In this document: piece by piece, positions 97 to 4,763 of the stretch | How positions within the stretch are numbered: the stretch's first letter is position 1 | Layout of the letters: every line of letters begins with the position of its first letter | From: a virus | Lineage: Duplodnaviria; Heunggongvirae; Uroviricota; Caudoviricetes | Virus record (IMG/VR): IMGVR_UViG_2609459844_000002 | Span: 1-4,763 of that record | Direction: 5' to 3' (one strand) | DNA: 4,763 nucleotides | Notes under the pieces: model-generated | Databases searched by the model: none | Seen by the model: the letters and a program-made list of their open reading frames with translations, nothing else | Told to the model about the DNA's origin: nothing | Position numbers and translations under genes: made by a program

Positions 97-293
97 AAAT
101 GTCTCACAATTCAGACGGTTGACTGTTGTCTGGTTTGCGGGGAGTTTGTTAAAAGAAACTGGCATGGTGAATCCCCCTGTGCGGAGGGGCAATCAGCGAG
201 TAGGTATATGGGATAATCGCGGATTCAGGTGCTGGTACTGAATTCACCGGGAGGCACCCGGCACCATGCAATGGCACATAGCGCCACTCTCCA

Positions 294-320
294 GCCCCTC
301 TCCGGAGGGGCTTTCTTGTG
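294..320 (+). terminator. Putative rho-independent terminator
   Basis: Perfect 7-bp stem GCCCCTC (294-300) / GAGGGGC (305-311), loop TCCG, followed by the T-rich stretch TTTCTTGTG. Confidence 0.45.
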
Positions 321-323
321 GGC

Positions 324-352
324 AAAAAAAGCCCGCGCTGGGAGACGCGGGC
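324..352 (-). terminator. Putative rho-independent terminator for leftward transcription
   Basis: Perfect 7-bp stem GCCCGCG (331-337) / CGCGGGC (346-352) with an 8-nt loop, preceded on the + strand by A7 (324-330), which is a U7 tail on the - strand transcript. Confidence 0.4.
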
Positions 353-449
353 GGCAAGGAATAAACAATAAAACGTGAAGTAATATTTCAGCTGGCGAAT
401 AATACCCCATAGTAATCACTCTGCGCAACTGCGCGGTCTTTTTCGAATT

Positions 450-504
450 GCGGGCTGTCGTCTCTCTTCTGCCATTGTCCTGTAACTTCCGGACTTCAGC
501 CCGC
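450..504 (+). repeat. Perfect 8-bp inverted repeat (GCGGGCTG ... CAGCCCGC) with a 39-nt spacer, in the leader of the esterase gene
   Basis: Read directly: 450-457 is the reverse complement of 497-504. Lies about 40 nt upstream of the start at 546. Function unknown (leader stem-loop or protein-binding site). Confidence 0.5.
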
Positions 505-545
505 TCCTCATTTTACTCACAATATTATCCCGGCCGGGAGGATTC

Positions 546-1481
546 ATGGCATTTAAACACTATGATGTTGTCAGGGCGGCGTCGCCGTCAGACCTTGCGG
601 AAAAGCTGACACACAAACTGAAAGAGGGCTGGCAGCCATATGGCGGACCGGTTGCCATTACGCCGTACACACTGATGCAGGCGGTGGCTATTGAAGGAGA
701 TCCACAGGTCGGCCCTTCATCTGAGCCGGACTGGTTCTACGTGGTTGTGCTTGCCGGACAGTCCAACGGCATGGCCTACGGTGAAGGGCTTCCGTTACCG
801 GATTCTTACGATGCTCCGGATCCGCGCATTAAACAGCTGGCGCGCCGCAGCACGGTAACTCCGGGTGGAGAGAGTTGTACGTATAACGACATCATCCCGG
901 CTGACCACTGTCTGCATGATGTGCAGGATATGAGTACGCTGAATCATCCGAAGGCAGACCTGAGCAAAGGGCAGTACGGCTGTGTCGGCCAGGGCTTACA
1001 TATTGCCAAAAAACTGCTTCCGTATATCCCGAATAACGCGGGGATCCTGCTGGTACCATGCTGTCGTGGTGGTTCGGCATTCACCCAGGGCGCGGAGGGG
1101 ACATTCAGTGCGGACACGGGGGCCAGCCAGGATTCGGCACGCTGGGGTGTGGGTAAACCGTTATATCAGGACCTGATCGCACGCACCAAAGCGGCATTAC
1201 AGAAGAACCCGAAAAATGTGTTGCTGGCGGTGTGCTGGATGCAGGGAGAGTTTGACATGAGCGCCGCCACCTACGCACAGCAACCTGCGCTGTTTACAGC
1301 CATGCTGAAGCAGTTTCGTGCTGACCTCACTGTGTTTAACGCGCAGTGTCATGGTGGCAGTGCTGTAAATGTGCCGTGGATTTGTGGTGACACGACGTAT
1401 TACTGGAAAAATACATACGCTATTGCTGTGTCTCCGATGCTGTATGGGCTGGCAAAACTGGTCATTGCGCTGAAATCGTGA
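546..1481 (+). CDS. DUF1737-domain / SGNH-type (sialate O-acetylesterase-like, NanS-p-like) protein, 311 aa, possibly a short or truncated form
   Basis: Strong SD GGGAGGA 4 nt before the ATG. N-terminus (MAFKHYDVV...KEGWQPYGGPV) has the pattern typical of DUF1737. The LAGQSNGMAYGEG motif is the GQSN nucleophile block of the SASA/SGNH esterase family. The position, downstream of phage tRNAs and upstream of the lysis genes, is where lambdoid/Stx phages carry nanS-p paralogs. Confidence 0.8.
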   Translation: MAFKHYDVVRAASPSDLAEKLTHKLKEGWQPYGGPVAITPYTLMQAVAIEGDPQVGPSSEPDWFYVVVLAGQSNGMAYGEGLPLPDSYDAPDPRIKQLARRSTVTPGGESCTYNDIIPADHCLHDVQDMSTLNHPKADLSKGQYGCVGQGLHIAKKLLPYIPNNAGILLVPCCRGGSAFTQGAEGTFSADTGASQDSARWGVGKPLYQDLIARTKAALQKNPKNVLLAVCWMQGEFDMSAATYAQQPALFTAMLKQFRADLTVFNAQCHGGSAVNVPWICGDTTYYWKNTYAIAVSPMLYGLAKLVIALKS

Positions 1482-1580: not shown

Positions 1581-2048
1581 ATGAACCGTGTTCTGTGTGT
1601 GGTGATTATTGTCCTGCTGGTAGCCTGTGGTGTGCTTAGTCTGGGGCTGAATCATTACCGTGATAACGCCATTACCTACAAAGCCCAGCGCGACAAAAAT
1701 GTCAGAGAACTGAAGCTGGCGAACGCGGCAATTACTGACATGCAGATGCGTCAGCGTGATGTTGCTGCGCTCGATGCAAAATACACGAAGGAGTTAGCTG
1801 ATGCGAAAGCTGAAAATGATGCTCTTCGTCGCAAGCTTGATAATGGTGGCAGGGTGCTCGTCAAAGGAAAATGCCCTGTGCCATCCTCAGCCGAAACCTC
1901 CAGCGCCTCCGGCATGGGCAATGATGCCACCGTCGAACTCTCTCCAGTTGCTGGACGAAACGTTCTCGGTATCCGGGACGGAATTATCCGCGACCAAACA
2001 GCACTGAGAACGCTTCAGGAATACATCAGGACGCAATGCCTTCGATGA
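1581..2048 (+). CDS. Rz: Rz i-spanin (inner-membrane spanin subunit)
   Basis: N-terminal TM segment followed by [59 protein letters not shown], near-identical to lambda Rz as I recall it. I place the start at ATG 1581 (the track's GTG at 1497 is upstream in frame) because it aligns with the lambda Rz N-terminus and is preceded by a GGTGG SD-like sequence. Confidence 0.9.
1801..2007 (+). CDS. Rz1: Rz1 o-spanin (outer-membrane lipoprotein), embedded in the +1 frame of Rz
   Basis: Wholly inside Rz in a different frame. Signal peptide plus lipobox (LIMVAGC), then the proline-rich stretch [19 protein letters not shown] 8 nt upstream. N-terminus MRKLKMML resembles lambda Rz1 (MLKLKMML). Confidence 0.85.
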
Positions 2049-2222
2049 TAGCGATAATTTTACTCATCATCCTTCACATCTGGCTCTGTAGACAGGGTGG
2101 TGATCACTTCTGGAGTGAATCCAGATTTAACATCTCATTGCTGATGCTTGATATTGAGCATCTTGCGCGCGGTAAGGGGCTGCGTTGAGATAAGAGCCAG
2201 TCATCACAAACACCAGGATTTA

Positions 2223-2248
2223 GCCTCGCATTCGCGGGGCTTTTTATT
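2223..2248 (+). terminator. Rho-independent terminator downstream of Rz/Rz1
   Basis: Stem GCCTCGC (2223-2229), loop ATTC, stem GCGGGGC (2234-2240) with one G-U pair, followed by TTTTTATT. Confidence 0.5.
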
Positions 2249-2266
2249 GCAACAAAGGTAAAGACG

Positions 2267-2554
2267 ATGGATGAAGAATATCGTAAAGACCTGCAATTGT
2301 GGTTTGGCCTGACGCATGCGTCGTTCTGCGTGATGCCGAGAGTATTCATGGAGGCTATGCCGCAAGAATGGCAAGAGAAGATGGCGCAGTTGCTTTTTGA
2401 GTATGGCGACACGATCAAAACGGATGTCTGCGGAGTTCACTGCTGTTTCGTTACTGCCAAAGACGGCAACAACCGCTTTATGAGGATGCCAGAAGATATT
2501 CTGAACTATCGTCATCCCCGGCGTGAGTTCATCGAATCATTTCTGAAGAAGTAG
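2267..2554 (+). CDS. Hypothetical protein, 95 aa
   Basis: ORF with E. coli-like codon usage (CTG, CCG, GCG, ACG common) and balanced charged/hydrophobic composition; weak SD (AAGG) about 8 nt upstream; begins just after the terminator at 2223-2248. No family recognised. Confidence 0.55.
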   Translation: MDEEYRKDLQLWFGLTHASFCVMPRVFMEAMPQEWQEKMAQLLFEYGDTIKTDVCGVHCCFVTAKDGNNRFMRMPEDILNYRHPRREFIESFLKK

Positions 2555-2647
2555 CCATTACAAAGTCTATCTGCGGGGGGCTTGATAAAGGTGCTTTCAC
2601 CTCGCTTAGCATGGTATGTTCTGACTACCAACTTTTTGGGAGGACAC

Positions 2648-2872
2648 ATGGAACTGATAAATGGACGGCCAGGCAGAGATTTTATAGTGGGAACATATAC
2701 CTACTCAGAAATTAAAGATCTTAACTTCATGGCTAAGGAAGAGAAAAGAGCTCGTGAAGAGCTAAAGCATCGGGGTTACGAATTGGCGTATATCAAGGCG
2801 GACTCTGAATGTAACGGGATGTTTGTCAGGGCGTACCGGGTCTATACTGACAAAGCGCCATCTAATGTCTAA
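2648..2872 (+). CDS. Hypothetical small protein, 74 aa
   Basis: ATG at 2648 preceded by GGGAGGA (2638-2644). The track's TTG start at 2582 is in frame but has no SD, so I prefer 2648. AT-rich relative to the flanking phage genes; a T6 run follows the stop. No family recognised. Confidence 0.5.
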   Translation: MELINGRPGRDFIVGTYTYSEIKDLNFMAKEEKRAREELKHRGYELAYIKADSECNGMFVRAYRVYTDKAPSNV

Positions 2873-2938
2873 ATATACCTCGGGCGGTTTTTTACGTTCA
2901 TTACCGTACGCAATTACAGCAGGCATTCATTGAGTGCC

Positions 2939-2947
2939 TGTGATAAT
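2939..2947 (+). promoter_or_regulatory. Candidate extended -10 promoter element (TGTGATAAT) for the 134-aa ORF
   Basis: TG at 2939-2940 plus GATAAT at 2942-2947 (5/6 match to TATAAT), about 60 nt upstream of the GTG at 3008. No good -35 element, which is compatible with an extended -10 promoter. Prediction by eye only. Confidence 0.3.
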
Positions 2948-3007
2948 GATTTATCAACGTGCTTGCAAACGGTATTCTAGACCTCCAATTATCCTAAGGA
3001 GGTTTTT

Positions 3008-3412
3008 GTGGTTAAAAATTTAGAATACATGAAGGGGATGCTTGAGGTATTTTTGAAAGCGAAAACTCCCTTTATATCTACAAAAGACTTAGCTAATGCG
3101 GGGTACGATATCTGCTCGAATGAAGGGATGTTTCATTATCTACTTCTTATTGAGCAAGGTTATATCAGTAATAAAGATCTAATAACGGATGACATAACTA
3201 AACTGGGCTACATGCGCCATTGTGGCCATATGCTAGATATGGGTACCGACGTGCGACTATCTGCGCAGGGACAAGAATTCGCCCAGGCATTAAATGAACC
3301 TACGGTTTTTGAGAAATTAAAGTCAATGAGCGATGCCCCTTTGAGTACAATCAAAGATGTTGGGCTGGAGTTAACGAAGGCCTATTTAAAGAAGAAATTT
3401 GGCCTCGAGTAA
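3008..3412 (+). CDS. Hypothetical protein, 134 aa, in AT-rich moron; possibly DUF2513-like
   Basis: Canonical SD AAGGAGG (2996-3002) 5 nt before GTG 3008 (an alternative ATG lies 21 nt downstream in frame). Coding segment is visibly AT-rich compared with the flanking phage genes. The N-terminal pattern and the GYDI...HYLLLIEQGYI motif resemble my recollection of DUF2513 phage proteins; unverified. Confidence 0.6.
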   Translation: MVKNLEYMKGMLEVFLKAKTPFISTKDLANAGYDICSNEGMFHYLLLIEQGYISNKDLITDDITKLGYMRHCGHMLDMGTDVRLSAQGQEFAQALNEPTVFEKLKSMSDAPLSTIKDVGLELTKAYLKKKFGLE

Positions 3413-3624
3413 AATTTCTACCCTCACGAGTTAAGTTGTTTTGTGATGGTTATTCGCAATGAATATCTTTAGCCACTGGCATTTGCTGGTGGTTTTTTTA
3501 TGCGCATCCCTCGCGCACCACAAAGGGAGTCTTTCAGTAGTGATTCTGAATATCAGTGTGATAAACGTATTTGATAATCATTATCATTTTTGGTGGGTCC
3601 TTTCCGGCGATCCGACAGGTTACG

Positions 3625-3636
3625 GGGCGGCGACCT
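3625..3636 (+). other. cosN: lambda-type 12-nt cohesive-end sequence GGGCGGCGACCT
   Basis: Exact lambda cohesive-end sequence, preceded by the lambda right-end sequence ...GATCCGACAGGTTACG and followed by lambda left-end sequence running into the Nu1 start. The cos region overall (cosQ side, cosN, cosB) spans about 3560-3800. Confidence 0.8.
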
Positions 3637-3732
3637 CGCGGGTTTTCGCTATTTATGAAAATTTTCCGGTTTAAGGCGTTTCCGTTCTTCTTCGTCATAA
3701 CTTAATGTTTTTATTTAAAATACCCTCTGAAA

Positions 3733-3789
3733 AGAAAGGAAACGACAGGTGCTGAAAACGGGCTTTTTGGCCTCTGTCGTTTCCTTTCT
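3733..3789 (+). repeat. cosB region: perfect 16-bp inverted repeat (AGAAAGGAAACGACAG / CTGTCGTTTCCTTTCT) flanking a 25-bp spacer; probable Nu1-binding R elements with an intervening IHF site
   Basis: Inverted repeat read directly (3733-3748 and 3774-3789). Position between cosN and the Nu1 start matches lambda cosB, where oppositely oriented R sites flank the I1 IHF site. Confidence 0.6.
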
Positions 3790-3813
3790 CTGTTTTTGTC
3801 CGTGGAATGAACA

Positions 3814-4227
3814 ATGGAAGTCAACAAAAAGCAGCTGGCTGACATTTTCGGCGCGAGTATCCGTACCATTCAGAACTGGCAGGATTTGCCCGTAATCAAG
3901 CTGGGTAACGCGCGGGTTGTCCTTTCCCGCCGCAGACGTCGTAAAAAGGGGCAGCGTTCATCCCTGAAAGGTGGCGGCAGCGTGCTTGTGGTGGGAAACC
4001 GTCGTATTCCCGGCGCGTTTATTCAGCAACTGAAAAATGGCCGGTGGCATGTCATGCAGCGTGTGGCCGGGAAAAACCGTTACCCCATTGATGTGGTGAA
4101 AATCCCGATGGCGGTGCCGCTTACCACGGCGTTTAAACAGAATATTGAACGGATACGGCGTGAACGTCTTCCGAAAGAGCTGGGCTATGCGCTGCAGCAT
4201 CAACTGAGAATGGTAATAAAGCGATGA
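3814..4227 (+). CDS. Deletion-fusion ORF: Nu1 N-terminus (23 codons) joined in frame to the C-terminal ~114 codons of tail protein Z
   Basis: MEVNKKQLADIFGASIRTIQNWQ is the lambda Nu1 N-terminus; DNA similarity to lambda Nu1 stops at about 3884. The rest (DLPVIKLGNARVVLSRRRRRKKGQRS...LRMVIKR) matches my recollection of the lambda gpZ C-terminus and ends in the ATGA stop/start overlap with U, as Z/U do in lambda. Probably a non-functional remnant. Confidence 0.75.
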   Translation: MEVNKKQLADIFGASIRTIQNWQDLPVIKLGNARVVLSRRRRRKKGQRSSLKGGGSVLVVGNRRIPGAFIQQLKNGRWHVMQRVAGKNRYPIDVVKIPMAVPLTTAFKQNIERIRRERLPKELGYALQHQLRMVIKR

Positions 4228-4619
4228 AACATACTGAACTCCGTGCAGCCGTACTGGATGCACTGGAGAAGCATGACACCGGGGCGACGCTTTTTGATGG
4301 TCGCCCCGCTGTTTTTGATGAGGCGGATTTTCCGGCAATTGCCGTTTATCTCACCGGCGCTGAATACACGGGCGAAGAGCTGGACAGTGATACCTGGCAG
4401 GCGGAGCTGCATATTGAAGTTTTCCTGCCTGCTCAGGTGCCGGATTCAGAGCTGGATTCGTGGATGGAGTCCCGGATTTATCCGGTGATGAGCGATGTCC
4501 CGGCACTGTCAGATTTGATCACCAGTATGGTGGCCAGCGGCTATGACTACCGGCGCGACGATGATGCGGGCCTGTGGAGTTCTGCCGATCTGACTTATGT
4601 CATTACCTATGAAATGTGA
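4224..4619 (+). CDS. U: Tail tube terminator protein U
   Basis: 131 aa, near-identical to lambda gpU as I recall it ([22 protein letters not shown]...LTYVITYEM). Same length and same position between Z and V. Confidence 0.93.
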
Positions 4620-4626
4620 GGACGAT

Positions 4627-4763
4627 ATGCCTGTACCAAATCCAGCAATACCGGTGAAAGGTGCCGGAACCACCCTGTGGGTTTATAACGGGAGCGGCGA
4701 CCCTTATGCGAACCCGCTTTCAGACGTTGACTGGTCGCGTCTGGCTAAAGTTAAAGACCTGAC
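4627..4763 (+). CDS. V: Major tail protein V, N-terminal 45 codons; continues beyond the window
   Basis: [45 protein letters not shown] matches the lambda gpV N-terminus; GAGGA SD 5 nt upstream; 7-nt gap after U as in lambda. Confidence 0.92.

Follow-up and report, generated by a model that had tools for sequence, protein, structure and literature searches.

Among the lambdoid prophages of Escherichia coli O157 Sakai, defects in packaging and morphogenesis genes have been described: Sp3, Sp4, Sp6, Sp9, Sp14 and Sp15 are examples of such elements, with deletions or disruptions that affect packaging, head, tail and lysis modules, and defective Sakai prophages without head and packaging genes were found to be packaged with the help of other prophages (PMC2669165). 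The prophage remnant described here resembles these elements and lies next to potC, an insertion site of lambdoid (Stx) phage (PMC8065619). With phage lambda (NC_001416) it shares the cos site, the start of nu1, the 3' 114 codons of Z, the gene U and the start of V, in the same order and at 96.6-98.9% DNA identity, whereas ten genes are missing and the truncated remains of two others are fused. Like the cos-type satellites (cos PICIs and P4-like elements), it is small, has its own integrase and a helper-type cos and lacks packaging and head genes; unlike them, it shows no replication or helper-interference module. Its gene content and its near-identity to functional lambda-like phages show the remnant to be a recently deleted full prophage and not a dedicated satellite lineage. 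We take the cryptic prophages Qin and DLP12 of K-12, with their nu1 homologues nohA/nohD, to be similar defective lambdoid prophages, and the early region of the remnant (ydfE-like, DUF1482, dicB, hok, DUF968, rusA) presumably resembles Qin of K-12.

The window, by which we mean the whole stretch of 4,763 bp that was analysed, is contig JNPF01000082.1 of the E. coli draft assembly GCA_000703525.1 and has the layout of a lambdoid prophage's late region. At its left end stands the 3' part of a tRNA (1-52), whose counterpart in UPEC69 is the final member of an Ile-Arg-Arg tRNA cluster. Just 3' of this truncated tRNA, in prophage sequence that separates the tRNA cluster from the esterase gene, lies the sRNA STnc100 (133-323, plus strand), a full-length Rfam match (139 bits; gathering score, 47). 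In UPEC69 an iraM-like anti-adapter gene occupies the interval from the tRNA cluster to the esterase gene; window 313-544 is without alignment to UPEC69, the window sequence being shorter and different here, and this comparison suggests that the segment is another mosaic or deletion boundary.

A truncated sialate-O-acetylesterase-like gene (546-1481; DUF1737 and SASA, the Pfam SASA match being limited to profile positions 4-157 of 226) is followed by Rz with embedded Rz1 (1581-2048) and by four small ORFs to which no function is assigned (2036-3412). Adjoining cos on its upstream side is a 134-aa ORF (WP_000240372.1; 3008-3412, plus strand) with a match to phrog_585 and no Pfam family, and 3' of it lies a terminator-like hairpin (3471-3494). 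This ORF is kept at the same position in the prophages of TA8571, DETEC-P169, UPEC69 and O104:H4, which otherwise differ, and it looks like a moron, its function being unassigned. The lambda-type cos site (from 3595) and the chimeric nu1'-'Z ORF come next, followed by an intact U gene for the tail terminator (4224-4619, plus strand; Pfam Phage_tail_U, profile 1-130 of 130, E 2e-61) and the first 46 codons of the gene for the major tail protein V (4627-4763, plus strand), which is cut by the contig end.

The cos site and the nu1'-'Z junction

The cos site upstream of the chimeric ORF is intact, complete and of the lambda type. An exact cosQ-like heptamer, GGGTCCT (3595-3601, plus strand; equivalent position lambda 48473), which we take to be cosQ from the general anatomy of lambda cos, precedes cosN with the 12-nt cohesive-end sequence GGGCGGCGACCT (3625-3636, plus strand), equal to lambda bases 1-12. 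Within cosB (3677-3789, plus strand) three Nu1-binding repeats, presumably corresponding to R3 (3677), R2 (3734) and R1 (3774) of lambda cosB, are identical to those at lambda positions 53, 110 and 151, as determined by alignment and motif positions. The sole changes in cosB with respect to lambda are one substitution and one 1-bp gap between R2 and R1, and from cos to nu1 codon 23 the nu1 start region is identical to that of lambda except for one synonymous change. The site has been kept because the deletion begins only 70 bp into nu1.

The ORF at 3814-4227 (plus strand) has an ATG start and a TGA stop and encodes 137 aa, which the initial annotation had read as Nu1 codons 1-23 joined to the C-terminal part of Z. 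Two partial Pfam matches and alignments to lambda bear this reading out. Phage_Nu1 (PF07471) matches residues 1-31 (profile 1-33 of 164, E 1e-9) and Minor_tail_Z (PF06763) residues 21-137 (profile 74-190 of 190, E 5e-49); by blastn against NC_001416, window 3625-3884 corresponds to lambda 1-261 (98.9% identity) and window 3874-4763 to lambda 8202-9091 (96.6%). At single-base resolution, the match to lambda is unbroken up to and including 3884 on the left side and from 3882 onward on the right. The two overlap at 3882-3884, and the crossover therefore lies within GGA, a 3-bp perfect microhomology on the plus strand that is nested in an imperfect match of 8 out of 11 bases (AACTGGCAGGA versus AACCGGGGGGA). 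The lambda alignment proposed as a check in the initial annotation thus mapped the junction and revealed the microhomology, and the position of about 3884/3885 suggested there is the right-most placement within GGA.

Three-way alignments with lambda, TA8571 and ATCC 8739, the last two being the closest available relatives on the left and right side, respectively, gave the same picture of the junction. In TA8571 the 134-aa ORF and cos are present too (window 2555-3884, 99.3% identity), and after cos the genes continue in lambda order, the complete series from nu1 to FII being followed by Z, U and V. ATCC 8739 likewise has the full set from nohA, a nu1 homologue, to Z, U and V, and its Z-U stretch shows 100% identity to the window where the two were compared (3882-4300), as does that of many E. 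coli prophages. The Z gene of ATCC 8739 is annotated as frameshifted (9770-10346 of our record L017), in an otherwise intact lambda-like prophage.

In lambda coordinates the deletion amounts to 7,951 bp (261 joined to 8213; bases 262-8212 absent), and in those of ATCC 8739 to 7,946 bp; for both the size and the microhomology, close relatives stand in for the true parent phage, and these relatives are 98.5-99.3% identical to the window overall across the aligned flanks and match it exactly right beside the join. The gap against lambda confirms the loss of roughly 8 kb, from the rest of Nu1 to the 5' part of Z, that had been predicted from lambda gene order. According to the lambda annotation, nu1 codons 25-181, A, W, B, C, nu3, D, E, FI, FII and Z codons 1-78 are lost. 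The junction is that of a clean single deletion, with neither filler bases nor an IS element.

The nu1' segment (3814-3884, plus strand) comprises codons 1-23 and two bases of codon 24, together with the native start and upstream region, and the 'Z segment (3885-4227, plus strand) codons 79-192 of the tail completion protein Z and its stop. The phases of nu1 and Z coincide at every possible crossover position, so that the product consists of Nu1 1-23 and Z 79-192. As for Z and U in lambda, the stop overlaps the U start in an ATGA (4224-4227). Preservation of the frame, of the native nu1 start and of the coupling to U, as stated in the initial annotation, thus holds.

That the ORF might instead be a complete, unrelated gene merely similar to Nu1 and Z could be argued from its NCBI name, which is just 'phage tail protein', and from its best PHROG match, phrog_8274, a 354-position profile of unassigned function that matches residues 17-137 (E 2e-73). 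However, DNA identity to nu1 (98.9%) and to Z (96.6-100%) ends abruptly at one point, and both Pfam matches hit truncated parts of their profiles. The partial Pfam matches and the lambda alignment refute this possibility, and we assign it a negligible probability. The last 121 positions of phrog_8274 are the Z C-terminus, and other fusions that end in 'Z may have been the source of this profile.

Both parts of the chimera are incomplete. The Nu1 part is identical to residues 1-23 of the gpNu1 DNA-binding domain structures 1J9I, 7LW0 and 6HN7, and in the PDB alignments identity ends at residue 23, which leaves 23 of the 68 residues of this N-terminal winged helix-turn-helix domain (PDB 1J9I, residues 1-68 of lambda gpNu1). 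The C-terminal part of Nu1, for self-assembly and gpA binding, is absent, and gene A is not downstream. Compared with full-length gpZ (PHROG 27; ~190 aa), the chimera is without the N-terminal 40% (profile positions 1-73), and a PDB sequence search with the Z part returned no match. In position the ORF resembles a Z gene, as it lies directly upstream of a full-length U with overlapping stop and start codons. A promoter and terminator scan around the chimeric ORF yielded sites no more numerous than in shuffled sequence.

Occurrence of the junction and related deletions

The exact 137-aa protein is present on at least 21 contigs, and its database entries include NCBI HBK9559536.1, HBN0458590.1, HBN0498994.1 and HBN0668392.1 as well as UPI00098A88F5. 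Nine of the contigs were retrieved, from assemblies of NCBI isolates, of ENA and JGI metagenomes and of Logan, and a 51-mer spanning the junction was found in every one (9/9); the search for the same junction in related strains suggested in the initial annotation has thus produced nine other contigs. Seven of the nine are 100% identical to the window across the shared stretch, and the remaining two show, taken together, 7 substitutions and one gap of 2 bp, none of which lies in the ORF. The junction is thus inherited in several isolates. The chimeric ORF is 100% identical in all copies found, and hence no divergence among them speaks for or against selection.

A short-read contig collapsing two lambdoid prophages of one genome could in principle create such a junction artificially: the window is a 4,763-bp draft contig with both ends in repeated prophage sequence (tRNA cluster and V gene), and places similar to the window region number up to 11 per E. 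coli genome (median 2). Yet the identical junction is found inside contigs of up to 286 kb, obtained with different pipelines in different laboratories and with consistent host flanks. An assembly artefact is refuted by the nine independent contigs with the same 51-mer, and we consider its probability to be close to nil.

The contiguous junction is absent from all 5,426 complete RefSeq E. coli genomes searched, and the sole high-coverage match among them is a different deletion. The exact 27-base junction likewise gave 0 matches in a genome collection with a single representative per species, in the viral contigs of IMG/VR (2.9 million) and in JGI metagenome contigs, collections that are incomplete for this purpose, as the JGI scan overlooked a junction-bearing JGI sample (L005). 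No papers describing a nu1'-'Z junction were found in a general literature search. Because the junction is rare, being absent from the complete genomes and the scanned collections, it marks either a single small lineage or an element that spread recently.

Independent, analogous deletions have occurred elsewhere, in two of the complete genomes. In L3452210II (NZ_CP076527) a head-module deletion joins lambda 708 to 8063 and runs from nu1 into Z at about codon 29, and in DETEC-P169 (NZ_CP116166) another joins lambda 583 to 5895 and runs from nu1 into D. Like that of the window remnant, both deletions start in nu1 and keep cos and the downstream tail genes; unlike it, they have other endpoints, lie in other prophages and are out of frame, and they are annotated as pseudogene fragments. 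A deletion hotspot in nu1, considered for the three independent deletions that start there, was rejected on grounds of ascertainment bias: the shared start is an ascertainment effect, because the query spanned nu1' and 'Z.

The prophage remnant on longer contigs

Longer junction-bearing contigs place the remnant, 17-21 kb in size, between potC and potB. Its left border consists of potD-potC and the integrase, and its right border of tail-fibre and tail-fibre-assembly genes, followed by potB-potA-pepT. A search for an att core repeat at the prophage ends returned a best shared word of 12 bp, which is not convincing. The element is chromosomal, bounded left and right by host genes and carrying an integrase at one of its ends, and its late genes are in lambda order and of high identity to those of functional phages; essentials of the lytic cycle, namely packaging and head, holin and endolysin, and V-to-J functions, are lost, as expected of a defective lambdoid prophage. 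It is thus more degraded than is visible in the window, since holin, endolysin and V to J are gone as well.

In the gene lists of the longer contigs, genes for terminase, portal, protease, decoration protein, capsid, FI and FII are all missing between the integrase and the right host flank. Lacking terminase, portal, protease/scaffold, decoration protein, capsid, FI and FII, the element is unable to cut cos, to package DNA or to assemble heads. The initial annotation had reached the same conclusion for the prophage, and its proviso that head genes might lie adjacent in a misread arrangement is answered by their absence from the element on these contigs.

Besides the nu1'-'Z deletion (7,951 bp, lambda 261 to 8213, in frame), three further deletions were mapped. 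The V'-'J deletion, out of frame and 8,474 bp long in lambda coordinates, has its ends at V codon 112 and approximately J codon 755 and takes out G, T, H, M, L, K and I; its join, where three bases match neither parent, lies at 11148-11152 of contig L003, ~200 bp past the right end of the window. The esterase'-to-Rz deletion, with its junction at 1419-1421 (plus strand), comprises 2,764 bp relative to UPEC69 and removes holin, ydfR and endolysin. Here the esterase-like gene is cut at about codon 292 and joined 160 bp upstream of Rz; past the junction its frame continues for 20 codons and then stops. Identity to UPEC69 is 88.6% on the left side of this junction and 99.96% on the right side.

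The remaining deletion, of 4,720 bp, affects a stretch with hok, DUF968, rusA and Q that is gone in four of the six contigs reaching that far. Two remnant architectures can accordingly be distinguished, the stretch being present at 775-5494 of contig L002 and lost at position 5496 of contig L003, while the remaining loci are 100% identical. The longer architecture holds hok, DUF968, rusA, the Q antiterminator gene and a full DNA methyltransferase gene, and the shorter one only the 3' part of the methyltransferase gene. The nu1'-'Z, V'-'J and esterase'-to-Rz deletions are common to every contig crossing those junctions, and loss of the Q region is a later step, in a subset of copies.

Integrase and excisionase are kept by the remnant, and this raises the question whether it is a helper-dependent element for which a lambda-like phage supplies terminase, heads and tails. 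In this case a co-resident or infecting lambda-like phage would mobilize it, either as a multimer or by in-situ packaging initiated at cos. Alternatively, the chimera might interfere with such phages. The cosQ-like motif, cosN and the lambda-identical R3/R2/R1 repeats agree with mobilization, as do the integrase and a small ORF upstream in the longer contigs and the precedent of the Sakai prophages that, without head and packaging genes of their own, were packaged with help (PMC2669165).

Retention of cos, however, is the plain remainder of a deletion starting at this point of nu1, and the junction is absent from the viral contigs scanned. Lambda packages roughly 38-51 kb of DNA, and the element is far below this size. 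Neither capsid-size nor helper-sensing genes are in the gene lists of the longer contigs, which also lack a replication module; in agreement, no primase, replication-initiator or repressor family is among the Pfam matches of called genes in contigs L002-L007, a precomputed list that could overlook unknown genes. We regard both mobilization and the helper-dependent reading as a whole as very improbable, and interference by a Nu1'-'Z fragment with lambda-like phages as less likely than mobilization. If the element were mobilized in situ from cos, adjacent host DNA on the potB-potA-pepT side would be carried along.

Origin and meaning of the junction

We propose that the junction is very probably a neutral deletion scar in a decaying lambda-like E. 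coli prophage between potC and potB, and the chimeric ORF a by-product. None of the observations made here speaks against this reading. One illegitimate recombination between nu1 codon 23/24 and Z codon 78/79, via the GGA microhomology, would have removed ~7.95 kb, that is, the rest of nu1, A, W, B, C/Nu3, D, E, FI, FII and the first 78 codons of Z. It would have left an in-frame 137-aa ORF after the native nu1 start, a by-product rather than a new gene, and have deprived the prophage of cos cutting, DNA packaging and head building. Further deletions would have taken the lysis genes and the V-to-J tail module, and the grounded remnant would be inherited with the chromosome. As to the route, slipped mispairing or microhomology-mediated end joining may be envisaged, both being established for E. 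coli deletions between short repeats. The 3-bp overlap is mildly above random expectation, with an estimate of ~5% for 3 bp or more.

The open frame could also be taken as a sign that the Nu1'-'Z chimera was co-opted, with the frame kept by selection, for example as a dominant-negative product against superinfecting lambda-like phages that would target, e.g., tail completion or the binding of terminase to cos. In favour of this view, the fusion has retained its reading frame, the native start and its ATGA coupling to U, and the ORF is intact in every contig carrying it. However, an in-frame outcome, expected about one time in three, is best read as due to chance: just one of the five deletions assessed for frame is in frame, as chance predicts, and because the other four are out of frame, preservation of the frame carries no weight. 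Moreover, the copies are identical in DNA, and their intactness reflects recent common ancestry, not constraint. Absence of the junction from all complete E. coli genomes searched argues in the same direction.

Because the Nu1 part covers only a third of the domain residues counted above (23/68) and the Z part is without 40%, a functional chimeric product is unlikely on sequence grounds. Transcription of the late operon requires activation by Q, and expression of the chimera would need Q, whose gene is gone in most related contigs. The suggestion in the initial annotation that a chimeric protein could be made stands as a possibility, ORF, start and coupling being present, but the loss of Q in four of the six sufficiently long contigs speaks against its realization as well as against co-option. 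We judge co-option to be very improbable; neither co-option nor helper mobilization has positive support.

Read as a scar of prophage decay, the nu1'-'Z junction is an ordinary, well-understood product that matters little beyond annotation. Public database entries for the 'phage tail protein' would be corrected to a nu1'-'Z fusion pseudogene, and the junction cleanly marks the lineage formed by a small set of E. coli isolates. For tools that call prophages it is a caution that a cos site and a nu1 start need not mean a packaging module. The remnant adds one further well-mapped example of stepwise prophage decay, in which ~7.95 kb were lost across a 3-bp microhomology and, with its sister deletions, it shows the order of events: the nu1'-'Z, V'-'J and lysis deletions are common to all contigs crossing those junctions, and loss of the Q region followed later, in a subset.
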